A stretch of DNA of 64,000 nt from Candidatus Latescibacterota bacterium (lineage in GTDB: Bacteria; Latescibacterota; UBA2968; SICM01), in the NCBI GenBank assembly GCA_965217865.1, contig CBDCJO010000002.1, positions 2,528,001 through 2,592,000 of the forward strand, given 5' to 3'. The translations under genes and the position numbers were made by a program. Each line of letters begins with the position of its first letter. Position 1 is the first letter of the stretch. Under the pieces are notes generated by a model. That model had not been told where the DNA came from. It saw only the letters and a program-made list of their open reading frames with translations, and ran no database searches. Of the stretch, positions 44,519-64,000 are shown piece by piece.

Positions 44519-45226
44519 TCATGAATCCACGGTAAATATCACACGAATGGCCTTTTGAATAGAATTCGGGTATTGATGCTCCACACACCCCCGATACAAA
44601 ACGCGGCCAACGTGCTTTCCGAACAGACTCAGAAGGTGAGTGGGCGACTCGAAATCGAAGAGATCCGCTTCCCCCGTCCGGTATGCGACTGGAACTTCAA
44701 CCGCGACAATACCCCCTTTCCCGGCCACCCTCGCAAACTCCTCCGCAACCCGCTCCGGACATAACGCATGCTCAAACGAGTGTGAACTGAATACCACATC
44801 GAATGATGCGTCTTTGAATTCCATTTCGTGCATGTCCATGATCCTGACATCCTCACTTCTGCTGAACAGATCGATCCCGGTAATGTTTTGAACACCCCGT
44901 TTCCGGAAGTGATCGATCTCGGCATCATTGCGGCAACCGACACAGAGGACGCGACTTTTATGAGACGGGAGATGGTGGATGACGAGATCGATAAACTGAC
45001 GAGCGCGAAGGGGGATGCTCCCGTCGTCTTTGATCAAGGTTCTCCGAAGTTGGGAATCCAGATATCGACGATATCGCCCGTCAAACGGGCCCAATCTTTG
45101 GATCAGCCGGAATCGATGGCGCCGAAAAATCAAAGATCGCACGGTTCGCTGAATTTGGAGCCAAAACCGGGGGGGCAAAAGACCCGCAAGTCGAAAAAAG
45201 ATATTTATGAATACCATCCTGATCAC
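44519..45226 (-). CDS. Class I SAM-dependent methyltransferase
   Basis: VLCVGCR, DMHEM.F...SFDVVFSSHSFEH motifs. Confidence 0.82.
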   Translation of the reverse strand: MIRMVFINIFFRLAGLLPPRFWLQIQRTVRSLIFRRHRFRLIQRLGPFDGRYRRYLDSQLRRTLIKDDGSIPLRARQFIDLVIHHLPSHKSRVLCVGCRNDAEIDHFRKRGVQNITGIDLFSRSEDVRIMDMHEMEFKDASFDVVFSSHSFEHALCPERVAEEFARVAGKGGIVAVEVPVAYRTGEADLFDFESPTHLLSLFGKHVGRVLYRGCVEHQYPNSIQKAIRVIFTVDS

Positions 45227-45823
45227 AGAAAGTCCTCGAAAACCTCCTGATGGCGTTTGAGCCACGGTTTCAAATCGAACCGATCGACCGCCCTTTGGCG
45301 AGCCGCCTCCGAAAATTCCTTTAGACGATCGGCAACTCCTAATACCGCCTGAGCCATGGCTTCCGGATCCGGTGGAATTTCCCTTTCCCAGTTTAACTCA
45401 GACGGGATACCGATTCCGGCATCCTCTCCTACGAGCTCCGGAACACCCCCGCTGTGGGAATATACCACGGGAAGCCCACACGCCATGGCTTCAAGAACAA
45501 GACCCGGAGAGGCGTCATTATACTGAGTGTGCAGAAGCAAATGGGCCTGCTGGAAAATGGAGGGTGCGTCTGATTGAGCATAAGGGCCCACAAACGTTAC
45601 CCTACCTTCCAGGCCCAGCTCCTTCACCAACCTCCCCGCAATTTTGCTTGCCTCCTCCTCATCTCCCAACCATCCCAATCGACCGGTGACGGCTAACCGC
45701 GAATCAGGACGATGTCGTCTCAGAATAGCCAACGTCTTGAGCGCTGTGGAAAACCGGTAATAGTGCTTCTGCCTTCCACCCAGTAGAATAACCAGATCGC
45801 AGGTGTCTGATCTTTTTGCCCTA

Positions 45824-47351
45824 GCAGCCTGTTGAAAAAGTGCGTTTATGCCAAGATGACTGTTGTCTTTCCTTGTGGTTTGGTCCTATGATATATCAGG
45901 TTCAAACTGAGAAGGGAGGACGAGCAAATGGCAATGGGAAAACGAGGCCGACAGAGACAGGAAAACCTGTTCATCGCATCGAACACTTTGGTGAAATCTC
46001 CGGGTCATCCGTTCTACGAGAAGCTGAATCAGGTATTGGGGGCGAACGGCTTCGACGAGTTCGTCGAGGGGCTTTGCCAGCGGTATTACGCTCCTCATAT
46101 GGGTCGCAAGGGCATTCCGCCCGGGGTTTATTTTCGGATGCTTTTGATTGGGTATTTCGAGGGACTTGATTCGGAACGTGGGATCGAATGGCGTGTATCT
46201 GACTCGCTGACGTTGCGCCGGTTTTTGGGGTATGCCCTTGACGAACAGACCCCGGATCATTCCAGCCTGTCTCGCATCCGGCATCGGCTTCCCTTGGAAG
46301 TTCACGAAGCGGTTTTCAAGTGGATCCTGAGGGTCTTGTGCAAAGCGGGTCTGGTGAAGGGGAAGACGTTGGGCGTGGATGCTACGACACTGGAGGCCAA
46401 CGCCGCGATGCGCAGCATTGTACGCCGTGACACGGGTGAAGGCTACCAGGCATTCCTTGAGAATCTGGCCAAGGCCTCGGGCATTGAAACGCCTACCCGC
46501 GAGGACTTGTCCAAGATCGATAAGAAGCGACCGAAGAAGGGATCGAACCAGGACTGGGAGCACCCGCACGACCCGGATGCCAAGATCGCTAAGATGAAGG
46601 ACGGTCGCACGCACATGGCGCACAAGGTGGAGCACGCGGTGGATCTGGACACCAATGCCATTGTGGCAGTGGCGTTGTCGGGAGCAGATGAAGGAGATAC
46701 CGAGTCGTTGCCCTGGACGCTGCTCGAGGCGCAGCTCAATCTCAAGCAGGTCGCGAAGGACGAAAAAGCTGCCAAACGTTTGCACAGACAGCGTATACGG
46801 GAGGTGGTTGCGGACAAAGGATATCATAGCAACGATGTATTGACCAGTCTGAAGCAAGGCGGCATCCGGAGTTACATTTCAGAACCGGATCGGGGACGCC
46901 GCAAGTGGAACGGCCGACGAGATGAGCAGGCCGCGGTATATGCGAATCGACGCCGGATCAAGGGAGATCGCGGCAAGGCCTTGCGCCGAAGTCGTGCAGA
47001 ACGGGTGGAAAGAACCATCGCTCACACATATGATACCGGTGGCATGCGCAGGTTGCACTTGAGAGACCGCGGCAATATCCTCAAGCGTTTGCTGATCCAC
47101 ATCGGGGGCTGCAACCTGGCTCTGCTCATGCGCAAAGTGATGGGCGTAGGTACTCCGAAGGCCCTCCAGGACCTGGCCAAGGCCTTGCAGCGTCTACTGC
47201 TCGTCCTACAATCACGTTTGCTGCCCTCGGTCACCTTTTTAACCTCTTATCAGCGTCTCCTGCTCAATCTCCTTACCTTGATTTATCTGACCCGCACTCC
47301 AGGCGTCTTTTCCGTTTATGTGCGTTGAAAGGTAGTTCTTCAACGGGCTGC
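45824..47351 (+). mobile_element. IS5/IS1182-type insertion sequence, copy 1
   Basis: IRs GCAGCCTGTTGAAAAA / TTCTTCAACGGGCTGC; TA duplication within CTAG. Confidence 0.92.
45928..47328 (+). CDS. DDE transposase (DUF772 + DDE)
   Basis: TPDHSSLSR, VDAT, ADKGY, VER motifs. Confidence 0.93.
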   Translation: MAMGKRGRQRQENLFIASNTLVKSPGHPFYEKLNQVLGANGFDEFVEGLCQRYYAPHMGRKGIPPGVYFRMLLIGYFEGLDSERGIEWRVSDSLTLRRFLGYALDEQTPDHSSLSRIRHRLPLEVHEAVFKWILRVLCKAGLVKGKTLGVDATTLEANAAMRSIVRRDTGEGYQAFLENLAKASGIETPTREDLSKIDKKRPKKGSNQDWEHPHDPDAKIAKMKDGRTHMAHKVEHAVDLDTNAIVAVALSGADEGDTESLPWTLLEAQLNLKQVAKDEKAAKRLHRQRIREVVADKGYHSNDVLTSLKQGGIRSYISEPDRGRRKWNGRRDEQAAVYANRRRIKGDRGKALRRSRAERVERTIAHTYDTGGMRRLHLRDRGNILKRLLIHIGGCNLALLMRKVMGVGTPKALQDLAKALQRLLLVLQSRLLPSVTFLTSYQRLLLNLLTLIYLTRTPGVFSVYVR

Positions 47352-47911
47352 TAGGTGTGAATACGGTCGTATCGACGGCATTATACAATATTTCCCACCC
47401 CCCTTCGCGCTTACCCAGGAAAAGATCGGCGCTCCGTTTGCAGAATTCACTCTGATAAAAAACATAATCGGCCTCGTGCAGAATGCGGGCCATCGGCGCA
47501 TTTGTGCGTTCCCACCCCGGACCGTGTCAGGCGGGATATGCGACTCCATTTTGGTTAAGGGCGATGCGCGCACCCTTCTTGCGGGCGAACCACGCCAACA
47601 TCGTGGCCTTATAGGGCATCCTGCTGCTGACCATATAGAGGATGTTAAAATTTCGGGGGGAGTTGGGATAGTCGGCCTGCATCCGTTGAAACTTTACCAG
47701 GCCTCCAGATGCCTCTTCTCCGGGTGTGGGGATATCATCAAATCCGTAATAGACGCGGGCATTCCCTTTGGGGAGAGTCCTGAAAAATATGCCCAACCCT
47801 CGTTTGAAAACCCATATCGTCCCCAGGAGTCTCATGAAACAGATAAGTCCCGGCCCCAAAAACCATCGTTTTAGAGATGAAAACATATCCATTCCCGGGC
47901 AACCCTGAAAT

Positions 47912-50900
47912 TTATGATATCGCGTGAATCACGCCCAAATAAATTCGGGCGATGTCCTCGATGTTTGGAACGACAATCAAGCTTTGATAGAACTCGTATT
48001 TCTCCCCAATCCGGTCCAATTGCGCGGGAATTTCATCCCTTTCCCGAAAAGGCAGGCCTCCAAATCCGGTCAGCTCGGGGTGCCCTCCATCGTCCAAATA
48101 CAAAGCCGGCAAACCGCACGCCTGGGCTTCCAGAAGTGCGTTTGAACACGGATCCTTTTGACTTGCGGTGATGTAGATATCGTGCTCACGCAATAGCGCT
48201 GCGAGTTTTTCTGATGTTACGGGTGGCACGTGACGAATTCGCTCAAATGACTGTTGTGATCTTCCTGCGAAGGTATACTCGAATCGATCCCAATCCAGAT
48301 GCCCTTCCAACCATTTATAGATGTCTCCTCCTTTGCCGGGGTTATCGGACCAGGCGGTGGAGATCAATCGAATTTTTCGCCGGTGATCGAAAGTGACACG
48401 GCCCCTCCCATGGAAAATTCCTCCATCGACAGCATTTTTTATGATGACCGGTTTTACAGGGTCGAATCCCATCTGACGGAGTTGCCGGTAACACCACGCG
48501 GACTGGAGGGCGGTTGCAGTCGCAAATTGAGCGTTGAGCTCGAAGACTTGCTCGTCGATCCCGCGGTCCGATCCGCGATACAGAGAAACGGGTCCGTCTA
48601 TGCGATGAATCATTCGAAAATTCCCCCGCCTGGAAGCCCTCTTAAACTTTTCAACATCAAACCAGGTGGCATTACAGATATGGACATCGATTTCATCCCC
48701 GACCCGGTTTCGATAGACTTTGGCCCCAAGCCGGGTCAATGCACTGTTCAGGGCAAGCATAAATTGATTTCCACCCCCGTACGGGGGTTTATGAAACTCG
48801 TGCCACAGGCTAATGAACAGTTGGGGAATTGACTGAGCGGACCCTCGCCTTAAAACGAATCGCTGCCCCGCCCGTCGAATCAAAGCTCCCACCCACCATC
48901 GATTTCGCACAGTCGGCCGATTTTCGACCGACCCCGATCCGGGAGGACGGTAAACAGGGAGTTCGGAGATTCCTTCGTAAAGATTCCGAAATAGCGGGAT
49001 GTTGGCCTCCGGTGTATGGCTTCGCCCGATCCTGTCGTAATGGAAATCGAGAGTGGTGTGTAGGAAAGGATGGGACATTTCTCGCTCAATAAGCGCGATC
49101 CCTTGGTCCAGGTTGGAAAAAAGACAGGCGGGTTCCAGAATATCAGACGCCAATCCCACAGGTGTGCTGATGATCTTGCAGCGTGTCGACGCAGCCTCTA
49201 AAACCGCTCTAGGGCCTCCCTCCCACCGACTGGTGACAAGGTGCAAATCCTGGACCTGATATAACAAATTCACCGTCTTCCGGTCCAGAATATTGATATG
49301 ATTGTCGTCCCCCTCGATCGTCTTCCCGAAGAATGAAAAAGGGATATCGTGTGCGGCCAACCGGTGTCGAAGCCAATGCCGGCGTGGACCGGCGAGCAGG
49401 ATATGGATAGGCAGGTTTTTTTGCCACAAGGCCCGAACGATCGCCAGAAACAGGTCCGGCCCTTTTTGCACCTTCGGTCGGTCCAGATCCATCCCCAGAG
49501 AATCCCTCATAAAATTGCCGATCACATACCGCCCCTCGGGAATCCCCAACCGATTTCTAAGGGTAGCGATCGATTCCTCATCTATATGATCCCCCCCGAA
49601 AATCTCCGTATTAACGGCATAGCAGCCCGTTGAAGAACTACCTTTCAACGCACATAAACGGAAAAGACGCCTGGAGTGCGGGTCAGATAAATCAAGGTAA
49701 GGAGATTGAGCAGGAGACGCTGATAAGAGGTTAAAAAGGTGACCGAGGGCAGCAAACGTGATTGTAGGACGAGCAGTAGACGCTGCAAGGCCTTGGCCAG
49801 GTCCTGGAGGGCCTTCGGAGTACCTACGCCCATCACTTTGCGCATGAGCAGAGCCAGGTTGCAGCCCCCGATGTGGATCAGCAAACGCTTGAGGATATTG
49901 CCGCGGTCTCTCAAGTGCAACCTGCGCATGCCACCGGTATCATATGTGTGAGCGATGGTTCTTTCCACCCGTTCTGCACGACTTCGGCGCAAGGCCTTGC
50001 CGCGATCTCCCTTGATCCGGCGTCGATTCGCATATACCGCGGCCTGCTCATCTCGTCGGCCGTTCCACTTGCGGCGTCCCCGATCCGGTTCTGAAATGTA
50101 ACTCCGGATGCCGCCTTGCTTCAGACTGGTCAATACATCGTTGCTATGATATCCTTTGTCCGCAACCACCTCCCGTATACGCTGTCTGTGCAAACGTTTG
50201 GCAGCTTTTTCGTCCTTCGCGACCTGCTTGAGATTGAGCTGCGCCTCGAGCAGCGTCCAGGGCAACGACTCGGTATCTCCTTCATCTGCTCCCGACAACG
50301 CCACTGCCACAATGGCATTGGTGTCCAGATCCACCGCGTGCTCCACCTTGTGCGCCATGTGCGTGCGACCGTCCTTCATCTTAGCGATCTTGGCATCCGG
50401 GTCGTGCGGGTGCTCCCAGTCCTGGTTCGATCCCTTCTTCGGTCGCTTCTTATCGATCTTGGACAAGTCCTCGCGGGTAGGCGTTTCAATGCCCGAGGCC
50501 TTGGCCAGATTCTCAAGGAATGCCTGGTAGCCTTCACCCGTGTCACGGCGTACAATGCTGCGCATCGCGGCGTTGGCCTCCAGTGTCGTAGCATCCACGC
50601 CCAACGTCTTCCCCTTCACCAGACCCGCTTTGCACAAGACCCTCAGGATCCACTTGAAAACCGCTTCGTGAACTTCCAAGGGAAGCCGATGCCGGATGCG
50701 AGACAGGCTGGAATGATCCGGGGTCTGTTCGTCAAGGGCATACCCCAAAAACCGGCGCAACGTCAGCGAGTCAGATACACGCCATTCGATCCCACGTTCC
50801 GAATCAAGTCCCTCGAAATACCCAATCAAAAGCATCCGAAAATAAACCCCGGCGGAATGCCCTTGCGACCCATATGAGGAGCGTAATACCGCTGGCAAAG

Positions 50901-51507
50901 CCCCTCGACGAACTCGTCGAAGCCGTTCGCCCCCAATACCTGATTCAGCTTCTCGTAGAACGGATGACCCGGAGATTTCACCAAAGTGTTCGATGCGATG
51001 AACAGGTTTTCCTGTCTCTGTCGGCCTCGTTTTCCCATTGCCATTTGCTCGTCCTCCCTTCTCAGTTTGAACCTGATATATCATAGGACCAAACCACAAG
51101 GAAAGACAACAGTCATCTTGGCATAAACGCACTTTTTCAACAGGCTGCTAGGAGACGTTCACCGCCGGAATACCCAGTCCGACCATCTCACGAAAGGCAT
51201 TCCGGCTTTGGGCAACCCACACGCCGACGATTTGCTTGGTCCTGAGCACGGAAGGTTGCTCAAACAGCCAGACGGGGTCGTTGTTGACGTGGCACACGAT
51301 CCGTTTGCCCGCTAGGTGGTTTTCTTTCGCTGAAACCAGAGGCAGCTCCCAGACCGAGTGGATCACATCGCAACTTTCGATATCTTCCGTCAACTCGATC
51401 CGGTCGGAAAGGCCATTCAACGATTTCCGGGTCTGAGCCAGGTCATCGTCCAAAGCCCAGTTGGAATGATCTCCCCCTGTAAGAAAAACGCGGCAGGGAT
51501 ATCTCAT
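47912..51507 (-). pseudogene. Double-domain GT4 split by IS copy 2 (51149-51507 plus 47912-49621)
   Basis: Removing the IS restores ...AVNVSYAVNTEIF...; EGGPRAVLEA and SNALLEAQACGLP motifs. Confidence 0.88.
49622..51148 (-). mobile_element. IS5/IS1182-type insertion sequence, copy 2 (inverted; 1-nt deletion near 50851 in the transposase)
   Basis: Reverse complement of copy 1 with the same IRs; TA duplication. Confidence 0.92.
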
Positions 51508-52256
51508 CTTCGATCTTCGTCCTTGACGAATACCATCTCAAACCCCAATGTGTGACCCCTGAATATTTCACCGGATGTTTTCGCGTCCAACCACATCAAG
51601 AGGGCGATCAGCGGAGGATAGAAAAAAAGGAGGCTTCTTCGGCACCACCAGCCGATGACCCCCCCGGTATATCCCCACTGCCATACCTTAAGGAGGTTAG
51701 CGATTAATGCATAAAACCCACCTTGTGATCGGATCTCACCGACAGAGAATCCTGCTTCTCGGGCCGCCCAAAGCCAGGACTGATCCGTATAACGGCCATA
51801 ATCCTTCGGATCCCCGTGGATATGAAACATAAAAGGGGCCGTGACAACGGCCTTCCCGCCAACCTTCAACACCCGGAGGGCCTGTTTGAGAACGGTGATT
51901 GGATCCCGCACGTGCTCCAGGAGTTCACTCAAGATGACCGCATCGTATGACCCGGTCTTGACCGGAATATAAAAGGCATCGCAGACATAATCCGGCTCGG
52001 TTTGACGGTCGATATTTGCGTAATCAACTTGGAACGAAAAGGCTTCGATATCGAAGACCCCCCGTTTGTTCCTCCTCTTCCCGCCCAGATCCAGGATTTT
52101 GCTTTCTGAGGGAAATCGATCCACCTGTTCGAAATGAAAGGAATCGACATAAAAGCGGCGGACTGAGTACCCAGGATGATGAAGCAGCCTTTTTTTGAGG
52201 CTCCCGGGCAACCGGTTCGAATTTTCAGGTGCCATATCCGTTAATATTGAATGCAT
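51504..52256 (-). CDS. Class I SAM-dependent methyltransferase
   Basis: ILDLGG, YDAVILSELLEHV, HGDPKDYGRYT motifs. Confidence 0.85.
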   Translation of the reverse strand: MHSILTDMAPENSNRLPGSLKKRLLHHPGYSVRRFYVDSFHFEQVDRFPSESKILDLGGKRRNKRGVFDIEAFSFQVDYANIDRQTEPDYVCDAFYIPVKTGSYDAVILSELLEHVRDPITVLKQALRVLKVGGKAVVTAPFMFHIHGDPKDYGRYTDQSWLWAAREAGFSVGEIRSQGGFYALIANLLKVWQWGYTGGVIGWWCRRSLLFFYPPLIALLMWLDAKTSGEIFRGHTLGFEMVFVKDEDRR

Positions 52257-52573
52257 ATCCTTCTAAAGATAAAAATCTTACGCGATGCGGGATCGTTAAA
52301 TTCAACAAACCAACCTCGTGTGTCAAGCTCAAAACAAATCAACCCCCATCGAAAAGAATGGCTACAACTTATTTATATAATCTTATTTAAACGCATAACA
52401 ACAGAGCCCAGCCCCTATATTATATTATTATAATACAATATTTTTTAGAAAAAATATATTCTTCTGTGGCCTTAAACTTTTCGGGGGCATCCATCAATCG
52501 AAGGATGGACCCGTCAATTCCATGGCTGGAAATCCGGTTCTCCGGGTTTCGAGTTCCACAGCTTTATTCTTGA

Positions 52574-53962
52574 CTAAAGGGAAACGGCAAATTCTCTTAA
52601 AGGTTCCGCGTTTTCGGAATCGGATCGGAGTGCCGGAAAACGAAGCATAAACTTTGTACCCACACCCATTCGGCTTTCAACCTTGATGGTCCCGTTATGC
52701 TCCTCAATAATCCCTCTACAGATCGTCAACCCCAGCCCGGTCCCGTCCCCGTCCCCTTCAGATCTGCTCGTGAAAAAGGCATCGAATATCTTGCCCAGAC
52801 TCTCATCAGGGATTCCACACCCCGTGTCCGAAACCGTCACCAGGATCCCATCCCCATCCATTTCCGCGGATACCTGGAGACGACCCCCATCACCATCCAC
52901 CGCATGAGAAGCATTCTGAATCAGGTTTAAAAATACCTGTTGTAGTCGGTTGGCATTCCCCAGGATCTGGGGAAGGTCTGAATCCAGGTCCGCGACCACG
53001 CGAATGTTTCGCGCGATCAGATATTTTTCGATCAGGCCGATCGCCCCGTCGATCGGCAGTTTGATATCGATAGGCCTTTGAGAGGGATCGCTCTTCTTGG
53101 AATAGTTCCTCATCTCCTGAAGAAGATCCCGTATGCCTTCCGCTGCCCGCAATATATTCTCGTAAGAACTTCGCCGGTCAGGGTCTAAATCGGACTCCTC
53201 AGACAACCGGGCGGTCCCGATAATCGCGGCGAGGAAGTTCGAAATTTCATGAGTCGCAGTTCCCACCACAAAACTCAAAGATGCCATCTTATCCGCGTGA
53301 ACAAGCTTTTCCCGGTATTGCTCCAGCATTCGTTCCGCTTCTGATAATGTCTCGAACTGAACCTGGTTGTGATTGTTCAGGAAGGCACTCGAGAGCGTGC
53401 TGGCCACATAAGAGCCCAAAGCCGATGCGAGCTTGATTTCGGGTGTGAAAAATTCGCCGCCGAATTTTTGGTCGCACACGATCATCACCCCAAGGGTCCG
53501 TTCGGGCGCAACCATCGGGATGCACACAAGGTAATTTACCGGAAACGGAAACCTGATGGAATTCTCAGATGCCAGATAATGTGCGGCCAGAGCTTTTCGA
53601 TTTCGCAGCGACCTTCCGATGATGCCTACCTCGGGAAGAATTCGAAATCCCCAGGCCATGTCGGCATAGACCCCGGCGGCGGACTTGACATAGAGTTCTC
53701 CGGTGGTCTGGTCTGAAAGGAGGAGAAGGGCCGTGGATGCCTCCAGCGCATCTCGGGCCTCTTCTACGGCAATTCGACAGATCCGTTGAACGTCCCTTTC
53801 CCCTCCTAACCTTTCCATGAGCGAATACAGGACGGACTGGTCCCTGTAACAACGTTCCACCTCGTTCACTGCAGCCGCGATATCCTTTTCCCCGTCCCTC
53901 CAGTCCTTCCAGTTGGTCACCTCCAGGACTGAAGTGCTTCCTTCTTCGACTTTCCGGATCAT
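52574..53962 (-). CDS. GAF-domain sensor histidine kinase (cytoplasmic)
   Basis: HEISN H-box, QVFLNLIQNA, DTGCGI, GTGLGL. Confidence 0.92.
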   Translation of the reverse strand: MIRKVEEGSTSVLEVTNWKDWRDGEKDIAAAVNEVERCYRDQSVLYSLMERLGGERDVQRICRIAVEEARDALEASTALLLLSDQTTGELYVKSAAGVYADMAWGFRILPEVGIIGRSLRNRKALAAHYLASENSIRFPFPVNYLVCIPMVAPERTLGVMIVCDQKFGGEFFTPEIKLASALGSYVASTLSSAFLNNHNQVQFETLSEAERMLEQYREKLVHADKMASLSFVVGTATHEISNFLAAIIGTARLSEESDLDPDRRSSYENILRAAEGIRDLLQEMRNYSKKSDPSQRPIDIKLPIDGAIGLIEKYLIARNIRVVADLDSDLPQILGNANRLQQVFLNLIQNASHAVDGDGGRLQVSAEMDGDGILVTVSDTGCGIPDESLGKIFDAFFTSRSEGDGDGTGLGLTICRGIIEEHNGTIKVESRMGVGTKFMLRFPALRSDSENAEPLREFAVSL

Positions 53963-54327
53963 AACAGCATCTCCTCTACCAAGGCCATCAGAGAATCGAT
54001 ATGAAAGGGTTTTGTGATGTAACGTTCGACCCCTGCCTTAATAGCAACCTCCTCGTCGTCCTCCTGCCCTTTACACGTCAGCATCAGAATGGGGATGTGA
54101 GCCAGTTCGGGATCACCTTTGAACTGTCTGGTCGCCTCGATCCCGTCCATGCGCGGCATCAACCAGTCCATCAGGACCAGAGAAGGCCTTTGCTGGCGAG
54201 CGACTTCGAGACTCTCCAACCCGTTCGAGGCCGAACCGACCGTGTAACCCGCACGGATTAGCTTGGCCGTGAGCATCCGAACGATGAATGTGTTATCATC
54301 TACAACCAGGACGTTCTTAGAGACCAT
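53959..54327 (-). CDS. Single-domain response regulator
   Basis: VLVVDD, LMDWLMP.MDG, LT, KPF. Confidence 0.93.
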   Translation of the reverse strand: MVSKNVLVVDDNTFIVRMLTAKLIRAGYTVGSASNGLESLEVARQQRPSLVLMDWLMPRMDGIEATRQFKGDPELAHIPILMLTCKGQEDDEEVAIKAGVERYITKPFHIDSLMALVEEMLL

Positions 54328-54350
54328 AAGCCTTCAGGGGGACAACACGT

Positions 54351-55613
54351 TTATTCGCTTTTCAACACCGATGGCGATCTGGAAATTCGAAATGGGTATC
54401 TCCGATGGCAGCGGGTTGGAAAAAACATCCCCGGCGGTTGTGGAGGAAGACACGTCTGAGCGGGAGTCGGGAACCCCGGAGGAACAACCTCATCTCGCCA
54501 TCCGCCCCCTATCCGCTTAAGGTAGGTCTCTAATTTTACCGCCACCATCTCCTGTTCAAAATGCTGCTGTATCCTCAGACGGCCTGCGTCTCCCATTCTC
54601 TCCCCCGCACGGGTATCAAATAACAACCTCAAAAGAGACTGCCCCAGGGCACCCTCGTCTCCCGATGGGACAAGCAGTCCCGTTTGCCCGTGAAGGACCA
54701 ATTCGGGAACCCCCCCCACCTGGGTTGCCACCACAGGTTTGGCCATTGCCATCGCCTCAAGCACCGCATTGGGCGACCCCTCCATGGCGGAGGGATGTAC
54801 AAACAGGTCGATGGCTGAGAGGATCTCCGGAATGTCTTTCCGATATCCTAAAAATCTCACCCGATCCGAGATTTTAAGGTCTCTGGAGAGGGCTTTGAGT
54901 TGCTCCAAATCTTCTCCATCCCCCACGATCGCCAGGAAGGCTTCCTGGAAGATTTCAAACACCTTCGCGGCCGTCCGGAGAAGGAGCGGATAGTTCTTAA
55001 CCGGGGTCAACCTGCCAACTGCCCCAATCAATTGGAACCGCTCCGGGACTCCCAATGCCCGCCGCATCCTCCCCCGTTGGATGTGGCGGGCCGGATCCAG
55101 AATCTGGGTGTCCACTCCATTCGGCAACACCTCTACCCGTCCCCTGGAAATCTCCGGGAACCGATTCAGAATTTGACACTTCAGGAAATCCGAGTTAACA
55201 AGCGTACCCCTTACGACATCCTCCATGCCGTACCCAAGATGGGCCGATGATATTCCGGACCAGGGAGATGCACCCACCCTCAGCAGGACCGCCCCCTTTC
55301 CCACCCTGCGAATAATACCTGCAAGAAGGGCGGACTCTGTCCGGTTTCCCATTACTGTGCAAACGACGGCATCGATTGAATATTCCTTGAAGAATCGTTC
55401 TGCCTCCCACATCAGGTGTGCGTTGAAAGCCGGCTCGAAGAAATAATCGAAATGTGCAAACCCACTTGTCTGAGCTTGCTCCTGGGTTCACGACCCGCTC
55501 GGACAGGCAAACGTCACAGTGTGTCCCCGGTCCCGCAAACACTCCGCGGTTCCTATCGCCCAAGTCTCTCCTCCGCCTCCCTCAAGCGTATCGTTCCAAA
55601 ACAGGATGTTCAT
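54351..55613 (-). pseudogene. GT4 glycosyltransferase with in-frame TGA at 55488-55490
   Basis: MNILFWN...GGGETW...GHTVTFACPSGS*TQEQAQ... continues in frame to EGSPNAVLEAMAMAKPVVAT; true C-terminus uncertain. Confidence 0.8.
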
Positions 55614-56982
55614 CGGAAATGCGAACATCTTCTGAGAGCGGATGTGCCGAAGGATATCGGCTTTCAAGGAGACCGGGATCCTGCTCGTCTCCCTCCAGGC
55701 AAGCACACATGGCAAGTTCGTAGGTGTAACGGACGCGTTCACAAGAGGCGGGATTGGGTTTGGACGCATCTCCCGTGGCCATCACCGCATCCGCGCAGCA
55801 ACCTCCTCCGCACTGATACCTCGCCCAGCAATTCCTGCAAGGTTCACGCCGCTCGACGTGGAGATCCTGCAACCACGAGCTGTACCGCTCCCGGTCTATC
55901 CCCGAAAACACATCACCCATTTGGAGTGAATCCCAACCCAACAGGTCGGAACAGGGGTATAGACCCCCTTGCGGAGACACGGCTATGGATCGAGTACCCG
56001 CTCCACAGCTGTATAAAAGAACGTGTCGACCCATCAACTGCGCTATCGGCCCCTCGATCTCTTCTAGAACCATCTCATCTCGGCTCACCAGATGATCGAT
56101 CGTATAATCCCTCAACACTCCCAAGTTATTTCGCACATCCTGGATATGCTCCTCCCGGATATGGTCTGGGTGTTGAGCCGGCAAACTTGCCCAGCGGACG
56201 CCTATGGCCCTGGCAAACGGAAATCGGCGTTTCAACTCGCCAATGCGGCCCGCCAAATCCATATCCCTTCTGTTTGCCACAATCTGAAGACGGAGCTCCC
56301 CCGATTGAGGTCCCGTTCCCAAGACTGAGGCAATTCGATCCAGGGAATCCTGATGGTAGTCTCCACGGACTTCCACAATCAGGCAAACTCCCTTATCATT
56401 GATATAGGTCAAATTTCTCTCTGTCAGGGTGGAACCGTCCGTGACCAATTCGAAATGAAGCTTCTTTCCAAGCGCAGCAGCCTGCACCTCACCATATTCA
56501 ATGATGCGTCTGATGAGAGGAAAGTTCAGAAGGGGGTCACCCCCCTCGAATGAAATCGTACAGTCCTCTAACAACCCGGACTCTTGCATGAGGAGGTCCA
56601 TCGCCCCCAGGGCTACGCCTTCCGACATGTACTTAGGCCCGGTACTCCGATCAGAATTGATGGTATCGGTGGTAACACAAAGGGAAAGATGTGAAATTTC
56701 GACCCGGCTGGGCGGGTGGAACGGAGCTATCTGGACCGGTTTGGGACTCAAAATCTCAGCCCGTTCAAGTTCCTCTATCGCGGACTTGATCTCATCCGCT
56801 GGATGGCTTCCGAGAAGAAGCTTGAAAATCTCTTCAGATGTATGGCCGCTGCCGACAGCCAGAACATCCCGGGTCACGTCATCGATCTCGAAAAACCCGC
56901 CCCTGAGAACATCAAACAGAATATGTCTCTGATTCATTTCGAAAACGTGACTCTCGCATTTGAAAACGGTATTCGAAATCAT
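55582..56982 (-). CDS. RRE + radical-SAM-like + SPASM protein lacking CxxxCxxC
   Basis: PqqD-like N-terminus; FEGGDPLLNF; SPASM CGAG..YPC..CRNCWARYQCGGGC..C; SAM-cluster motif absent. Confidence 0.8.
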   Translation of the reverse strand: MISNTVFKCESHVFEMNQRHILFDVLRGGFFEIDDVTRDVLAVGSGHTSEEIFKLLLGSHPADEIKSAIEELERAEILSPKPVQIAPFHPPSRVEISHLSLCVTTDTINSDRSTGPKYMSEGVALGAMDLLMQESGLLEDCTISFEGGDPLLNFPLIRRIIEYGEVQAAALGKKLHFELVTDGSTLTERNLTYINDKGVCLIVEVRGDYHQDSLDRIASVLGTGPQSGELRLQIVANRRDMDLAGRIGELKRRFPFARAIGVRWASLPAQHPDHIREEHIQDVRNNLGVLRDYTIDHLVSRDEMVLEEIEGPIAQLMGRHVLLYSCGAGTRSIAVSPQGGLYPCSDLLGWDSLQMGDVFSGIDRERYSSWLQDLHVERREPCRNCWARYQCGGGCCADAVMATGDASKPNPASCERVRYTYELAMCACLEGDEQDPGLLESRYPSAHPLSEDVRISDEHPVLERYA

Positions 56983-57043
56983 TGAATAGTTCCCCTGATT
57001 AATAACTCTTCCGGTCTAACGCCCTCCTCCTCCAAAACCCCCT

Positions 57044-58408
57044 TTACAAACGCCCTGTCCGTTTCCGTTGTCTCCAGTTCCAGCTCACGCCTCTCCCCCA
57101 GGCCTCCAACGCCCTGTCCGTTTCCGTTGTCTCCAGTTCCAGCTCACGCCTCTCCCCCAGGCCTCCAACCACCTCCAAAGCAGCGTCGGCCTGGTGGCGC
57201 GAAGTGATGGCCACCGGATGGGTGAATATCCGATTCGAGTCCCGATCACCCGGGACGATCGGACCGATCCGGCACTGGATCCCGGCCAGGTGGGGGAGGA
57301 AGCCATCGCATGCCTGGCCGGTCCAGTGCCGAAGCGTCACGGACATATCAAACCCTTGACCCCGTATCGCCTTTGCCATTCCAAACTGCCTGACCATTCG
57401 CCATAAGCCCGCCCCACGGATGGGAGAAGGAATCACTTCATCGATATACCGGCACGCGGAAAAAAGCCCTTCGAAACCCGAAGGGACCAGACAGGCGATG
57501 TGGGCATCCGGATGCTGTCCCCTCAGGTATCTCAAGGCGGGGATGGCCAGGACCACGTCTCCGATCCCGCCCGGCGCAAGGACGAGGATCCGGCCTGGAA
57601 TCGGAGATTCAGGCGACGGCCTTCGAACCCGGTTTATAAAAGACCCGAATCCAAAAATTGCGGCCCTTTCCATCGCCTCACAAATACGCCCCTTCACCAT
57701 AGCCGCTACAGAGAGGAGAAAGGGCAATACCACACGTGGCAAGAAATCGTAGCGGTCCACATACGTAAGAACCCGGGTGTCGAGAAGCCATCCCGACATC
57801 CACGTAAGGCAGAAACCTCGATAGGGGTGACGATCCGAAAAATCGTAAACTCCTACCGCCAGATCGAACCCGCCGGCCTTCCGCAACGCCCTGACCAGGG
57901 CGGGAAGATTTCGGATATCCGCGCTGAATCTTCGAATATGCAAGTCGGCCCCAGGAATCCTTTCCCGGATGATCCCCGCAGGAATCCTGATGGCTGATGG
58001 ATCCGTGGAAAAGGTATAGAGAAGAACCCTCAAGTCCCTCCCGTTTACACCTTCCAGCAAACCATCACCGTGCCCACGGATCGACCATCGGAATAGATTT
58101 TCGAGGGGGTTCAACGGGCTATACACAATTGGGACCCAACGGCCTAAAAAGCGCTGGAGGACCCCGACCTGGATCGCCCCGACCGACCTCAGTTCCTCCA
58201 GCGCATCGCAGATATCCTCCTCCGGAAGATGGTCCTTCAGGGCATTCACCACCTCCCCGGAGGTACGTCCATCGCAGACGGAAAGAACAGCACGCACGAC
58301 ATCGTCGATCTCGAACCCGAGACTGTTCCCGGAGATCAACACGGTCCGACCGTCACCGGTCTCAATGATATCCAGCCCGTCTCGGATATAGAGGTTTCCG
58401 TTCATCAC
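57044..58408 (-). CDS. RRE (PqqD-like) fused to GT9 heptosyltransferase-like domain; C-terminally truncated
   Basis: FEIDDVVRAVLSVCDGRT...ALEELRSVGAI is paralogous to the rSAM N-termini; RILVLAPGGIGDVVLAIPALRYLR. Confidence 0.78.
   Translation of the reverse strand: MMNGNLYIRDGLDIIETGDGRTVLISGNSLGFEIDDVVRAVLSVCDGRTSGEVVNALKDHLPEEDICDALEELRSVGAIQVGVLQRFLGRWVPIVYSPLNPLENLFRWSIRGHGDGLLEGVNGRDLRVLLYTFSTDPSAIRIPAGIIRERIPGADLHIRRFSADIRNLPALVRALRKAGGFDLAVGVYDFSDRHPYRGFCLTWMSGWLLDTRVLTYVDRYDFLPRVVLPFLLSVAAMVKGRICEAMERAAIFGFGSFINRVRRPSPESPIPGRILVLAPGGIGDVVLAIPALRYLRGQHPDAHIACLVPSGFEGLFSACRYIDEVIPSPIRGAGLWRMVRQFGMAKAIRGQGFDMSVTLRHWTGQACDGFLPHLAGIQCRIGPIVPGDRDSNRIFTHPVAITSRHQADAALEVVGGLGERRELELETTETDRALEAWGRGVSWNWRQRKRTGRL
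57049..57169. repeat. 59-bp perfect tandem duplication in the 3' end of the GT9 gene
   Basis: AACGCCCTGTCC...GGCCTCC repeated at 57049 and 57108. Confidence 0.92.
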
Positions 58409-59862
58409 GCAGGCACCGCTTCAAGGTCTAGAAATCGTCGATCGACCAGTTCCTGATCGCGCTCCTGAAGCTCGACACACATGCCCATCGCCAGCTCGTA
58501 AGAGTGGCGGATGATTTCACACGACACGGGATTCGGGGTGAATCCGTCGCCGGTGGCCAAAAACGCATCGTGAGCGCACCCCCCTCCGCACAGGTTTCTC
58601 GCCCAGCATGTCTGGCAGGGCTTCTTGTTCCCGATGTAGAGCCGGTCTTTGAATCCGTCCTGTTTTTCCGAATCCAGTCCGGAAAAGACATCCCCGAGTC
58701 GGAACTCATCCTTCCCGGCCAGGCTGGAACAGAAATAGATCGAACCGTCGATGGATATCGACAGAAGTTTCCGGCCCCCGCTGCAACCGTATTTCGCCCG
58801 CTCCTGCTTCAGGAGTTGGCGTGCAAGGCTCTCAAACCTCCCTAGCTTCGTGGGGGGGTCCTCGTTGACAAGCCTCTCCACACAGTAGTCGCGCATCTCC
58901 CTTAGATGAGTCCGCATCTGGGGAAGATGCTCCTCCCGAATTGCCCACGGTTTGTCCGGGGTCTCGTTGACCGTTCCGACCAGGACAGCGCTGGCCTCCC
59001 CGAGTTCCGACAGGCTCCTGGCGGTTCCCGCAAGGTCCATGTTGGCCGATGTCAGCGTTGCCCGCAGGGTCACCTTCTCGGGCCTTTCGGCCATCATTCG
59101 TTGGGCGTTTCGAGACACCACTTCGTATGAGCCTTTTCCGTCGTGGAACATCCGCAGCCCGCTCTCGTCCTGCTTCGGGCCGTCGAGGCTGACCATCACT
59201 TCGATGTCCTCTTCATCGAAGAAACGGACCACTTCATCGTTCATCAACGTCCCATTCGTCGTGATCCCGAACGTTACGACGACCCCGACCTCCTCAGCCT
59301 TAAGACGGGCATACCGAACCACCTCTTTGATCAGGGGAAAATTGAGGAGCGGTTCTCCCCCGAAGAAATTGATGTGAGAACGGCCGACGGATCTACATCG
59401 ATCCAGCACCCAGTCCACGGCTTGCCGGGCGACCTCCGGCCGCATCTGCTCGACCCTTCCCCCGTAGGCCCCGCCGTCGGCGAAGCAGTAGATGCACTTG
59501 AGGTTGCATGCGTGGGAGACGTGCAGGGTCACACAGATCGGCGCGTCTGGTGTGCATTGGGGGTTCTCAGAATCCGGGATTTCGGACGGAATGGGCCCTT
59601 CGGAAATCAGGCCGGCTCCCTCCAACTCATGCGAAACCTCCAGGATTTCCTCCGGTGTCCATTGATCCGACAAAGCGGCGGCTACCTGTTCCGAAGACAA
59701 CCCCTCGCACGCGTCCAGAACCGCCTCGGACAGTTCGTCGATCTCGAAGAACCGGAGACCTTCCACGTCGAATAGAAGACGCCGGGAACCGTCCTGAAAC
59801 GTGTGTACCTCAGGCCGCCTGTACACCGGACCCGCCTTTCTTCTCCTGATCTGCCTTTTCAT
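58405..59862 (-). CDS. RRE + radical SAM + SPASM peptide maturase
   Basis: CNLKCIYC, FFGGEPLLN, TTNGT, VSLDG; SPASM CSGG..YFC..CQTCWARNLCGGGC..C. Confidence 0.93.
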   Translation of the reverse strand: MKRQIRRRKAGPVYRRPEVHTFQDGSRRLLFDVEGLRFFEIDELSEAVLDACEGLSSEQVAAALSDQWTPEEILEVSHELEGAGLISEGPIPSEIPDSENPQCTPDAPICVTLHVSHACNLKCIYCFADGGAYGGRVEQMRPEVARQAVDWVLDRCRSVGRSHINFFGGEPLLNFPLIKEVVRYARLKAEEVGVVVTFGITTNGTLMNDEVVRFFDEEDIEVMVSLDGPKQDESGLRMFHDGKGSYEVVSRNAQRMMAERPEKVTLRATLTSANMDLAGTARSLSELGEASAVLVGTVNETPDKPWAIREEHLPQMRTHLREMRDYCVERLVNEDPPTKLGRFESLARQLLKQERAKYGCSGGRKLLSISIDGSIYFCSSLAGKDEFRLGDVFSGLDSEKQDGFKDRLYIGNKKPCQTCWARNLCGGGCAHDAFLATGDGFTPNPVSCEIIRHSYELAMGMCVELQERDQELVDRRFLDLEAVPA

Positions 59863-60062
59863 CGACCTCGATCGTCCGGTTCTCAGCACCCTTGTTCTTT
59901 AAGAACGAGAAGTTGGGCCAAGGGAACATAGGGTAATCCGGATAACAGGATAAAGTGATCCGTCGCGTCTGCCCGGCCTTTGGCCTGGGCTTTCCCCTTG
60001 TCTGAATTTCCAAACACCCGTGAAAGCCCATTGACCAGCCTTAAATGTCGCTTTCTTTCCAT
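59810..60062 (-). CDS. Putative RiPP precursor B (one +1 frameshift near 59990)
   Basis: GGAGG RBS; MERKRHLRLVNGLSR... then in the next frame ...RRITLSCYPDYPMFPWPNFSFLKNK...; both halves match peptide A. Confidence 0.6.
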
Positions 60063-60125
60063 GAAGTCCTCCGGTGGTTTCAAGTCAAGCTGTTTGGGGA
60101 GATTGATAATTGAATATCCTTATCA

Positions 60126-60323
60126 CTACTCATTACTCGGGGTGGTCCTGGATTCGGTCTCATCCGGGGAGTTAACGGGACTTTGACGACGAAACAGGGA
60201 AAAGTTGGGGAAGATAGATCCTTCCGGCCAAATCGAGAGGGTGATGGACTGAAACGAATCTGAACGGCCACGGAAACCCGCAATCCCCTCATGATCGCGC
60301 GCGAGCCCGTTGACCAGCTTGCC
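60126..60323 (-). pseudogene. Putative RiPP precursor A (no start codon; not in the ORF track)
   Basis: GKLVNGLARDHEGIAGFRGRSDSFQSITLSIWPEGSIFPNFSLFRRQSPVNSPDETESRTTPSNE*; in-frame TAG immediately upstream. Confidence 0.55.
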
Positions 60324-60346
60324 CTATTCCAAAATGCCGAATATAG

Positions 60347-60378
60347 AAAAAAAAGCACCGGACAGTGTCCAAGTGCTT
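60347..60378 (-). terminator. Intrinsic terminator
   Basis: AAGCACTTGGAC-ACT-GTCCGGTGCTT followed by a T-run on the minus strand. Confidence 0.75.
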
Positions 60379-60520
60379 GAAAAACAGTTTGAAATCACGG
60401 GGAAGTCTTTAACCCTGGAGCTTAATTCATTCGGTTGGAATGATAAATATCCTTAGCATCCAATTTTTCCATCAATTATAAAAATCTCCTATCTATTAAC
60501 AAATAAATGTGGATGAATAA

Positions 60521-60567
60521 GTGCACAAGTTATATGCACATAGGTGCAAAGAAATCTTTGCACCTAT
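60521..60567. promoter_or_regulatory. Two adjacent GTGCA...TGCAC palindromes, candidate enhancer (UAS) sites
   Basis: GTGCA-N9-TGCAC (60521-60539) and perfect ATAGGTGCAAAG-aaat-CTTTGCACCTAT (60540-60567). Confidence 0.5.
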
Positions 60568-60596
60568 CGTGTTCCATTAATACCGGGACATGTTTG

Positions 60597-63500
60597 TCAA
60601 TCCTGGTTCCTCAACCCATAGCGTTTCATCTTCTGCTGAAGCGTCACCCGGCTGATCTTCAATGTTTCCGCGGTTCGGGTCACATTGTGGCCGTTATTGA
60701 CCAGGGCCTCTCTGATCATTGCCCGCTCCACCTGTTCTACCGCCTCCTTGAGGGAATCCCTGTCTCCTGCCAATGAAACAGCGTCGACAGAACGGCCCCG
60801 AACCCTCTCCGATAAAGCATCTTTTGAGATCTCCTGACCCGAGGGGGTGAGTGTCACAGCCCGTTTGATCTCATTCTCCAGTTCCCGTACGTTTCCAGGC
60901 CAGGTATGATCGATCAGAAGGGCCATAGCATCTGGTTCGATCCCGGGCACTTCCCGATTCAATGTCTTCCCGAACTCGTCCAAAAAATGCCTTGCAAGCA
61001 TCGGGATATCCTCTCGCCGGTCCCGCATGGGAGGAAGCGGGATCGGAAAGGCATTCAGCCGATAGAAAAGATCCTCCCGAAACCGGCCTTCACCGATCTC
61101 TTTTCCCAGATCCCTGTTGGTTGCGACAATCACCCGCACATCCACCTTTCTGGCCTTTGTCTCCCCAACACGGCGGACCTCCCCCTCCTGGAGCACGCGC
61201 AGGAGCCGGGATTGTACCTCCGGAGAGGCGTTCGTGATTTCGTCCAGGAAGAGCGTACCTCCGGTAGCGGCTTCGAACAGCCCGGACCGGTCCGCGATGG
61301 CCCCGGTAAAGGCACCCCGCCGATGTCCGAACAGCTCGCTCTCCAAAAGGCCTGGCGGCATCGCCCCGCAGTCCTGCACGATGAACGGACCGTCCTTTCG
61401 AGGGCCGTTGTAATGGATACTCCGTGCGACCAGCTCCTTGCCTACCCCGGTTTCCCCGGTGAGGAGGACCGTCATCCCGTGACCCGCCGCATTCGAAATC
61501 AGGGCGTAAACCTTCTGCATCGCCGGGCTCCCGCCGATCAGGCTGTCGAAGGCATAGCGCCGCTCAGCCTCCTGCTGGAGATGCAGGGCCTTCTGTTTCA
61601 GACCTTCGTGCAACTCCGCATTTTCGATCGCGATGGCCGCCAAATTCCCGAAGGCCTTCAGGAACTCCTCGTCCTCTTCCAAAAAGGCATCGGCGTGCCC
61701 CCGATGGTCCACGTAGAGCGCACCGATGATCCGACCGGATTTGATGCGAAGGGGCATGCACATCACGGACCGGATTCGATAGTCCACCACGCTCTGCCGG
61801 CCGACAAATTTCGGGTCGCTCTTCGCGTCCGCCGCCCTGAGGGGCCGCCCTGAAGTCATCGCATCCCGGATCAGGCTGTAACTGATCTGCGCGACCTCCT
61901 TCTCTTCCATCCGACGTGCCCTATAGGACCGGACCGTCAGCTCCTCACCCGGCTCCGCCAGAACGATAAGTCCCCGCTCGGCCTGCGTCGTCTCGAGGAG
62001 CAGGTCGATGGAACGGTTCAACAGGACGTCCAGATCGAGTATGGATGTCAGGGCCTTGCTCACCTCATACAGGGTCGACAGACGGTCCTCCGTAATCAGA
62101 TGATCTCCTGGAATATCCGGGTTGCTCATTTCGGTCTGTGAATCCGGTGCTGGGGTCTCTAACCTGGGATTTTCTGCTTCCGTGGGTTTGACTCTCCCAG
62201 AACCAGGGTCCCCCTTTTTGGATTGGGTGTTTTTTTTCATAACGATCTCCAACTCCCGAGCGGCCTTGCCCGCGAAATGCGTGGCACCCATCTGGGTAAA
62301 TATCTCTTCGGCCTTCTTGAGACAATTGATAGCATGCCCATGTTCCCCGAATCGATGATAAAACTTCCCCCCTTCCAGATAGGAACATCCCAGGTCGTAA
62401 ATCGGGTTCCCATCGATCACCGAGATGCTCTTTTTAAAACACCGTTCCGCCTCTTCATAATGCCCCATGGCTGACCTGGCTTTTCCAATCGCGCGCCAGC
62501 TCTGGTTCTGACGTAGAATATCCGCTGCCCCTGAAACATCCCGGGCAAGAAGGGCTTGTTTCAAGGCCCTATCCGGCCGACCCTGTCTAAGGGCGATCTC
62601 CGACAACTGGCAGTAGGCCAGCGGCAATTTTAACGTATCCTGAATCGTGAGGAACATTTCTTGGGCTGTTCGATAAGCATCTTCAGCGTTTTTCAGATCC
62701 CCCCGTTCAAGATAGATCGCACCCATGTCGATCAAAGTCTTCGCAACTCGACGTTTGGATCTCTGTGATCTGTCAAATTCCAACTCCTGTCGGGCGAATT
62801 CCTCAGCTAAGTCAAATTCTCCCCGTAGAAGATAGATCTGTCGAAGAGGGCCCAAACTCATGTATTTGGATATGGGGTCTTCGATCTCCTCGCAGATCTT
62901 CAGAGCTTCCCTTTCGCACTTCTCAACCTGGAGCAGATCTCCCCGCATCGAATGAGCCCGGGAAAGGGTTTGTAGACACCTGATCTCATTCCTTTTTCCT
63001 TCCATCATTCGATACTTTTCAGCAGCCTTGAACATGAATCCAGATGCCCGGTCAAACTCCCTTTTGTGCCAACAAAATGCGCTCAACCTCTGGAGTGAAA
63101 AAGCTTCATTTTCGCCATCACCCAGTAATTTATAAAGTCTCTGAGCTTTGAGGGCTGTCTCAATGGCCTTATCGTGGTCATCCTGATAAAGATATACACC
63201 GGAAAGGACCGAAAAAGCTTTTGCCTTCTGGTAGTCCATTTTCTCATTTTTTATTAGATCAAGAACCTGTTCGGCATTTCTTTTCGCTTCCTGCCATCGA
63301 CCTGTCATTATTAAGACGTATGCATAATTGCAGATAAGGTCCGTGTGAACGGTCGCCTTCTTTGTCAAACCTTCCGCTTGAATTAGCCCCAGAGCCTTTT
63401 CATAGGAGGATATGGCATTTCCGATGGCGTAGAGTTCGACCGCCCGATCTCCCCCATGCTTCAGGTAGGATATCGCCTTTTTGTGGTCCCCCCCTTCGTA

Positions 63501-64000
63501 AAAGTGGTGTGCGAGGGTTTCCACGACCCCTTCGGTCTGTCCGTTGCAGTGGCTCTCCAGGTTCTCTCCAACCTCCCGATGAAGCTGCCTTCGCCTCTCC
63601 TCAGGGATACCCTGGTAGATCACCTCCTGCTGCATCGCGTGAATAAAACGATATCTGGCCTTGGAGATCTCCTCGCGAATCACCTGCGCTCGGCGCAACC
63701 CTTCCAAAGCATCCAACAGGGGTAGCTCTCCGGTTTTGCTGACCTCCATAAGGGTGTCAAAGTCGAAGTGCCGCCCGATGACCGCCGCCCAATCGAGGAT
63801 CTTTTCCGTTTCCGGATCACCTCCTGAACCCTCTCGGGTACTCCTTTGATTTCCTCATCCCTGATCTGCCACCGCCCCTGTTCCCAAAAGATATGCCCCC
63901 CCTCCACGAGGGATCGAATGAGTTCGGTCACAAACAGAGGGTTTGCCTCAGCCTTTTGGAATACGCGTCGCCCAACCGCCTCGGGGATCTCCGCATCACC
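60597..64000 (-). CDS. Large ATPase/TPR/GAF/sigma-54-interaction/Fis-HTH activator (5' end outside window; frameshift near 63812)
   Basis: GETGVGKE, ESELFGH..GAFTGA, LFLDEI, WPGNVREL, C-terminal HTH; TPRs; ANPLFVTE and YRFIH motifs typical of STAND-type ATPases. Confidence 0.9.

Follow-up and report, generated by a model that had tools for sequence, protein, structure and literature searches.

Two short coding stretches on the minus strand, flanked on one side by a sigma-54 activator gene with its end at 60597 and on the other by a radical SAM gene, raise the question of whether they encode RiPP precursors, what the neighbouring enzyme would do to them, and whether the pathway still operates in this strain. 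The first-pass annotation had taken them for two hidden paralogous precursors, here A and B, served by a ranthipeptide-like enzyme repurposed for aromatic C-C cross-links. All coordinates are positions within the window, i.e., the whole stretch of 64,000 nucleotides that was analysed (Table 1).

Table 1. Features of the precursor locus and its neighbours, with positions in the window
Feature	Position	Strand	Remarks
Ser/Thr kinase-AAA-TPR-GAF-sigma-54 activator, 3' part	60597..64000	(-)	frameshift and insertion sequence
Putative sigma-54 promoter remnant (likely -24 half and spacer), holds TAG	60322..60331	(-)	alignment with G001 box
Precursor A, 5'-truncated	60126..60320 (open frame to 60323)	(-)	start, RBS and 7 codons missing
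Precursor B, leader half, 33 aa	59964..60062	(-)	ATG 60062; RBS GGAGG 60072-60068
Precursor B, remaining half with core and follower, in another frame	59810..59965	(-)	Cys codon 59947-59945 conserved
Predicted RRE-binding strand	B residues 4-16		complex model
RRE-radical SAM/SPASM maturase, intact, 473 aa	58405..59826	(-)	GTG 59826 inferred from homologue alignments
RRE-glycosyltransferase family 9 (GT9) fusion, C-terminally truncated, 454 aa	57044..58408	(-)	intact 623-664 aa
Second radical SAM-like protein, RRE and SPASM, no CxxxCxxC	55582..56982	(-)	predicted catalytically dead
Glycosyltransferase family 4 (GT4)	54351..55613	(-)	in-frame TGA 55490-55488 in the assembly sequence; Trp in G001
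Response regulator and GAF histidine kinase, co-directional	52574..54327	(-)	kinase syntenic in G001 only

Two Paralogous Precursors

The open frame of A (60126-60323) has no start codon and is preceded by a TAG (60326-60324); it encodes the leader strand KLVNG, then ITLS, and then a Cys-less core, IWPEGSIFPNFSLF. B is split over two frames, from an ATG at 60062 to a stop at 59810. The first-pass annotation had described B as split in this way, and its hand translations of both peptides proved exact. A and B are real precursors and similar beyond chance, as it had proposed: the core halves reach a similarity score of 51 against a shuffle mean of 20.8, which none of 10,000 shuffles equalled, and the leader halves a score of 42 against 18.8, equalled by 3 of 10,000. 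A precursor HMM run over the genome in six frames found no third copy (next best E 0.095). A 73-aa open reading frame at 60031-59810 (database entry P0011) was rejected as a real gene, because it has no leader and there are intact alleles.

Among the differences listed for run X9 (40 of 60), B carries at least 14 synonymous against at least 3 non-synonymous changes; its leader and core together show 10 synonymous changes and a single non-synonymous one (Tyr to Trp, in the core), a pattern of purifying selection. A is less constrained than B, with 2 synonymous against 4 non-synonymous changes among the differences listed. The analysis supports the reading of A and B as paralogous RiPP precursors, each composed of a leader, a core and a follower.

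A Precursor Family with a Single Core Cysteine

A search with the enzyme (E 1e-70) in 168 genomes of the phylum gave 46 places in 25 genomes, up to three per genome, and at 44 of the 46 a family precursor stands directly upstream of the radical SAM gene; homologous peptides do accompany the related enzymes, in keeping with the first-pass annotation. One of the two loci without a precursor starts at a contig end, and the other is an outlier of 31% identity. In 82 distant SCIFF-type loci, the precursor profile had no match (best E 0.29), and among 1.84 billion representatives it matched 24 proteins at E 0.001, one of them spurious. None of 58 precursors matched an NCBIfam model at E 0.1, the ESM Atlas returned no usable match for the intact B allele P0001, and Rfam had no match in 51000-64000. 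Scans of genome and metagenome contigs gave only distant (26-34%) SCIFF-type relatives among the matches listed; the source of three of 61 enzyme homologues is a Gemmatimonadota or Candidatus Latescibacteria MAG. The family is apparently undescribed: our literature search, conducted mostly outside subscription journals, found no account of a single-Cys, Pro-rich precursor family, and the accessible part of a study of sponge Latescibacterota MAGs lists antiSMASH ranthipeptide and RRE clusters without description (PMC12993501).

The comparison set comprises the 74 distinct precursors that remained after P0011 (misread frame), P0025 (duplicate) and P0032 (unrelated repeat protein) had been dropped, together with P0027, P0028 and P0035, which are apparently frameshifted; leaving out P0024 and merging identical cores gives 64 distinct cores. 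Three subgroups account for most of them: the ITLS subgroup, to which the window belongs (n=18; ITLS, then C-x-x-x-aromatic-P...FSFFRRR), an acidic-tail subgroup (n=41; GG, then C-x-P...VPPLPFP and an acidic tail), and a third with C-x-W-P-x-F-P-x-L-P-P-P (n=13); two precursors fall outside them. Since 41 of the 74 belong to one subgroup, the counts given here are not independent, and kinship makes them overstate.

All subgroups have in common the leader strand [RK]xLxL[IV]NG. Its likeness to SCIFF leaders, noted in the first-pass annotation, comes down to this short strand motif and is not significant (hhalign E 0.11). In the core, the best-kept residue is the very Cys that the annotation had discounted: it opens the core in 70 of the 74 precursors, is the only core Cys in 68, and is present in 40 of 41 members of the acidic-tail subgroup. 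The core at L045 also begins with Cys. The four exceptions are the intact form of A, P0017 and P0018, which have Ser instead, and the probably damaged P0024. A Pro follows within three residues of the Cys in 63 of 74 precursors. Callyaerins are Pro-rich marine peptides in which ring residues precede a diaminoacrylate that could derive from Cys; a product of that type was considered, but here the Pro-rich stretch follows the Cys.

The motifs [WY]P[ED] and [FW]PN, which had been put forward as conserved, are indeed common to A and B but recur in only 7 and 15 of the 74 precursors, respectively; what is kept is the aromatic-Pro pair itself: 63 of the 64 distinct cores contain it, where shuffles give about 36. 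Its position varies by subgroup (+2, +4 or +11 to +12), and no acceptor residue is fixed across subgroups. An aromatic residue stands at +4 from the Cys in 33 of the 74 precursors, among them 17 of the 18 ITLS members, and CX3[DE] occurs in 8 of 74.

The Radical SAM Maturase

The maturase, the inferred start of which overlaps the stop of B by 17 nt, has CteB as its best solved match by sequence (E 8.8e-62; ChlB 2e-14; anSME 2e-13) and by fold (TM 0.80, model pLDDT 85.6), anSME being the next structural match. Among the matches listed, it stays below every NCBIfam equivalog cut-off: the SCIFF model TIGR03974 gives 258 bits against a cut-off of 425, which places the system outside the SCIFF class, as does the presence of one core Cys rather than six, and the YhhB and FxsB models give 79 of 445 bits (E 4e-22) and 68 of 370 bits (E 7e-19), respectively. 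A quick tree puts window-type enzymes in a clade of their own (15 rows, SH-aLRT 99), apart from a SCIFF clade with a support of 100.

Each of the seven SPASM Cys of the maturase has its counterpart in CteB; there, according to the accessible text of PMC10177961, three Cys coordinate auxiliary cluster I, to which the Cys of the substrate binds. In this respect, the maturase fits the CteB/PapB/QhpD-like enzymes of ranthipeptides. At six active-site positions taken from the accessible text of PMC10288494, the maturase reads FFTSSS. CteB has FFTSHQ there, as do 47 of 53 SCIFF-adjacent enzymes; anSME has FQQSDF, and ChlB has YHQS (four positions visible). The maturase shares 4/6 positions with CteB, 2/6 with anSME and 1/4 visible ones with ChlB. 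The last two positions differ from CteB throughout the clade (SS or SA for HQ). In 32 of 61 homologues, an eighth Cys, absent from the window's maturase, lies three residues before the first SPASM Cys and could close the open iron site in those enzymes.

A complex model of the enzyme with residues 1-62 of intact B scored 0.88 (best control 0.01), passing a mark that is reached by 116 of 157 solved complexes but by only 2 of 215 mismatched pairs, with at least 48% of contacts shared between runs and a partner pLDDT of at least 40; because a like complex, CteB with its peptide, has been solved, this pass may reflect a memorised structure. The predicted contacts are confident only for B leader residues 4-16 on the RRE, and the core is not confidently placed. 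That the precursors are served by a ranthipeptide-type radical SAM enzyme is supported, and to this extent the first-pass annotation was right about the enzyme.

Its second half, repurposing for an aromatic C-C link, is not supported. The kept core Cys, the seven SPASM Cys and the CteB-like profile make a single Cys thioether likelier than such a link. Against the thioether itself we count the four Cys-less precursors, the absence of an acceptor residue fixed across subgroups, SS/SA for HQ, and the eighth Cys of homologues. The last two, together with Cys-less intact A and its two Ser-bearing relatives, would also suit an enzyme that makes triceptide-like links from an aromatic residue to a C-beta on aromatic-Pro-X, the Cys being incidental, and so would the near-universal aromatic-Pro and the motif F-P-[DEN], present in 31 of 33 acidic-tail cores against 3.4 in shuffles. 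However, the residue after aromatic-Pro is Gly, which has no C-beta, in two and Pro in three of 16 ITLS cores (never either in the other two large subgroups), the D or N after FP is simply where the acidic tail starts, the proposed motifs are rare where the Cys is nearly constant, and the enzyme is far nearer to CteB than to ChlB, with which it shares a single visible position, or to YhhB and FxsB. We therefore regard triceptide-like chemistry as rather improbable.

Oxidation of the Cys itself, to a thioaldehyde or formylglycine as a reactive N-terminal handle, with no thioether formed, is more improbable still. Anaerobic sulfatase maturases act on C-x-P-x-R and accept Ser in place of Cys; the Pro soon after the Cys, the unfixed acceptor, the Ser of P0017 and P0018, and the structural rank of anSME would all agree with such chemistry. 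Yet the C-x-P-x-R motif is missing, the active site matches anSME at two of six positions, the upstream SPASM Cys of anSME is absent from the window's enzyme, and the N-terminal RRE and the leader suggest handling of the CteB type.

Glycosyltransferases and a Predicted Dead Paralogue

Downstream of the maturase lies the RRE-GT9 fusion, whose N-terminus shares 47% of 53 aligned residues with the RRE carried by the maturase of G001, a genome with a syntenic contig (E 1.5e-8). G001 has an intact fusion of 664 aa, and five database clusters likewise contain an intact one; in the window's assembly sequence, the fusion ends in a 59-nt tandem duplication (57049-57166), and compared with G001 about 200 C-terminal residues are missing. 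In the clade of the second radical SAM-like protein, CxxxCxxC is missing from all five members, which represent three families (SH-aLRT 100, quick tree). Of 33 long loci, four have a strong GT4 match, which in every case comes after a second radical SAM-like gene; the others have none. The RRE-GT9 fusion and the dead paralogue beside GT4 point to glycosylation of the products, which is plausible from gene content, and we infer that the dead paralogue is an adaptor. Glycosylation would not be family-wide, because most loci of genus g4 have neither GT9 nor a strong GT4 match and carry other cargo instead. No peptidase or exporter was found in the window's operon or in the G001 contig.

The first-pass annotation had named the Ser/Thr of ITLS and NFS as candidate glycosylation sites. 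ITLS is invariant in its subgroup, although N-terminal to the Cys, and the Ser of FS is mostly kept; NFS, however, although A and B of the window have it in common, is not a conserved site, N-x-S occurring in 2 of 74 precursors and the intact A allele (P0010) having DFS at this place. The Cys could instead be the sugar acceptor, with the radical SAM enzyme acting elsewhere, on aromatic-Pro. S-linked glycopeptides are known, and an operon with RRE-GT9 and GT4 would provide the enzymes; nevertheless, the acidic-tail subgroup keeps its Cys at loci with no GT9 and only weak GT4 matches, and we consider S-glycosylation very improbable.

Regulation and Decay of the Window's Cluster

In related loci, the same type of activator precedes the precursor, and a sigma-54 box, TGGCAC-N5-TTGC, lies upstream of 35 of 42 related precursors. 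Upstream of A, no intact box was found in the window even at one mismatch, and only a first half remains, where 60331-60322 aligns with the variant TGG-N8-TTGC box of G001. The deletion in A thus probably took half of the predicted sigma-54 promoter with it: the -12 half would be gone together with the transcript start and the first part of A, and the TAG would be promoter spacer. The activator gene is frameshifted near 63700-63850 in the assembly sequence, and an insertion sequence, present in the genome in 90 near-full copies, interrupts it 0.4-1.9 kb past the window end. Whether the response regulator and GAF histidine kinase belong to the pathway is uncertain.

The breaks in A and B are present in the DNA and are not assembly errors, since short-read contigs have them and the alleles of other strains are intact. 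In run X1, which may be the source sample of the window sequence, a single contig spans 59300-60700 with no differences and no gaps; contigs of X3 (59300-60171) and of X7, from another study (59790-60101), are window-identical and gapless across the B break, and at the A junction contigs of X1, X2, X4 and X7 agree with the window. The lesion in B is a 5-nt deletion at about 59963, equal in its frame effect to +1. The intact allele P0001 (85 aa) consists of window 60062-59964 (33 aa), one residue, and window 59965-59813 (51 aa), and run X9 has five additional bases behind 59962; this composition and the extra bases place the shift there and not at the G4 run near 59995, where the first-pass annotation would have removed one base. 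A contig of run X4 equals the window over 59891-60051 except for five extra bases, and the deletion is therefore polymorphic among near-identical strains.

In A, about 125 nt including the start codon are deleted, with the junction at 60321/60322: X9 has 146 letters in place of window 60322-60342, runs X8 and X13 have a ribosome-binding site and ATG at the junction, and the intact allele P0010 (69 aa) equals A plus seven further N-terminal residues, still without Cys. The TAG in front of A belongs to this deletion junction and is no codon of A, so that readthrough into A was rejected, as were the assembly-error and G4-slip readings. That the cluster is active here, its breaks being assembly errors, programmed frameshifts or TAG readthrough, is scarcely credible: the genome is in two contigs, probably from long reads, with other frameshifts, and both radical SAM genes are open, but the same breaks recur in short-read contigs of two studies, other strains are intact with extra bases, a deletion junction lies upstream of A, and lesions of other kinds affect the regulator, GT9 and GT4.

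Because the lesions in the assembly sequence extend to the regulator and to both glycosyltransferases, this copy of the cluster is decaying, and the pathway is most likely silent in this strain. That both precursors and several other genes of the cluster are pseudogenes in this strain had escaped the first-pass annotation.

A Proposed Pathway

For intact strains, we think it rather probable that the maturase RRE binds the leader, that a thioether ring is formed from the core Cys, and that a sugar is then added by GT9 and GT4. The kinase-TPR-GAF activator would drive a sigma-54 transcript beginning before A, and leader residues 4-16 would pair with the maturase RRE. The Cys thiolate would bind the open iron of auxiliary cluster I and the 5'-deoxyadenosyl radical would take a hydrogen from the acceptor, giving one thioether ring from the Cys to a downstream carbon. 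The conserved aromatic-Pro may be the acceptor; that it is, in the ITLS subgroup, the aromatic residue at +4 (C-x-x-x-aromatic-Pro; Tyr45 in B) is a tentative and somewhat doubtful suggestion. Glycosylation would come after ring closure in the subgroups that have the transferases, with the dead paralogue as a leader-binding adaptor for GT4, and leader and follower would be removed by a protease encoded elsewhere. A, which has no Cys, might serve as a substrate for glycosylation only, or be a duplicate that is drifting.

In its fullest form, the proposal is a new RiPP chemotype of uncultured bacteria. A CteB offshoot with a wider, Ser-Ser pocket would join the Cys by one thioether to an aromatic or Pro carbon in a hypervariable, Pro-rich core; the RRE-GT9, of the heptosyltransferase family, would then glycosylate the product, and the dead paralogue would deliver the peptide to the second glycosyltransferase. 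The sigma-54 activator with its fused kinase would induce the pathway, of which a genome would have up to three variants. That the proposal holds in every part is unlikely. A link to an aromatic or Pro acceptor, if that is what forms, has no counterpart among ranthipeptides that our literature search found or that we know of. The locus belongs to an unnamed precursor family of uncultured bacteria that has its own enzyme clade and comprises 74 distinct sequences, without any model in NCBIfam or Pfam; the fixed leader with its naturally diverse cores offers a substrate library for a putative single-ring macrocyclase of peptides, and the pseudogenised cluster in the window records strain-level pathway loss in progress.

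Comparison with Known Systems

The nearest known system is SCIFF/thermocellin with CteB (PDB 5WGG/5WHY; TIGR03974), with which the window shares the RRE-radical SAM-SPASM architecture, the number of SPASM Cys and 4/6 active-site residues, a short basic-hydrophobic leader strand, and a precursor directly upstream. Unlike it, the window has an enzyme of only about 28-32% identity in a clade of its own, one Cys instead of six in a hypervariable, Pro/aromatic-rich core with a follower, SS for HQ, a sigma-54 activator, RRE-GT9 and a dead paralogue. Freyrasin PapB (NF047865) belongs to the same enzyme family (258 bits), and its Cys-to-(i+4) spacing in CX3D equals C-x-x-x-aromatic of the ITLS subgroup; however, the score is below the cut-off of 340, CX3[DE] is rare in the family, and there is a single motif here. 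Triceptides, as far as the accessible text of PMC11499958 describes them (ChlB, PDB 9GM3; YhhB, NF041707; FxsB, TIGR04269), are alike in their conserved core aromatics and a SPASM radical SAM enzyme, but the enzyme is distant, its active-site profile is another, X3 can be Gly here, and the Cys is conserved here.

Among thioether enzymes, the related, ranthisynthase-like CrpC of methanogens links Cys within Pro/aliphatic motifs such as CPLVL, according to the accessible part of PMC13692751, yet its substrate CrpA is a 29-kDa multi-Cys protein, and TIGR04463 scores only 59 bits on the window's enzyme. A fusion of an RRE to a glycosyltransferase has its counterpart in the putative RiPP clusters mentioned in one main-text sentence of RRE-Finder (PMC7470986), to which this comparison is confined. 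By these sequence tests, the system would work like a ranthipeptide, but not like SCIFF, freyrasin or a triceptide.

Insertion sequences and gene decay

The genome of the window is undergoing active insertion sequence expansion and gene decay. It holds 90 near-full copies of a 1.5-kb insertion sequence, including one inside the activator gene and two in the downstream glycosyltransferase region. Downstream of the precursor and radical SAM genes lie co-directional genes for a GT2, two methyltransferases and GT4 fragments, which may represent a polysaccharide locus or additional tailoring genes. In the related genome G001, the intact homologue of precursor B is preceded by a 36-aa ORF that begins MERIVNG and has a good ribosome-binding site; this ORF is possibly a decayed second precursor, like A in the window. 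The second radical SAM protein of G086, another related genome, retains CxxxCxxC, is followed by a GT4 gene, and may be an active counterpart of the window's dead paralogue.

Cargo of related loci

Related loci share a conserved activator-precursor-enzyme core, and the cargo behind it differs between them (tyrosinase, ThiF-family protein, peptide ABC exporters, sulfotransferase-like and nucleotide-sugar genes). In many loci of genus g4, the gene directly after the radical SAM gene encodes a protein of 300 aa that matches no Pfam model and carries a methyltransferase-like EFGSG motif; this protein is a candidate tailoring enzyme. Distant relatives of the enzyme (L078, L090) occur with precursors of ~100 aa that have Nif11/NHLP-like leaders.

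Coordinates of features in the window, its genome (G000) and loci around radical SAM homologues (L numbers)
Feature	Position	Remark
Insertion sequence copies	window 45850-47400; 49600-51130	glycosyltransferase region downstream
Insertion sequence copy	G000:C2:2592402-2593906	within activator gene
GT2, methyltransferases, GT4 fragments	window 43456-52256	
MERIVNG ORF	L017 (G001:C128) 2388-2495	
Second radical SAM protein, G086	L064:4897-6378	
Variable cargo behind core	L018:7624-9531; L065:9678-10790; L024:1857-7243	
EFGSG-motif protein	L018:6544-7452; L020:6354-7256; L024:12995-13927	further loci L031, L070, L071, L072, L075
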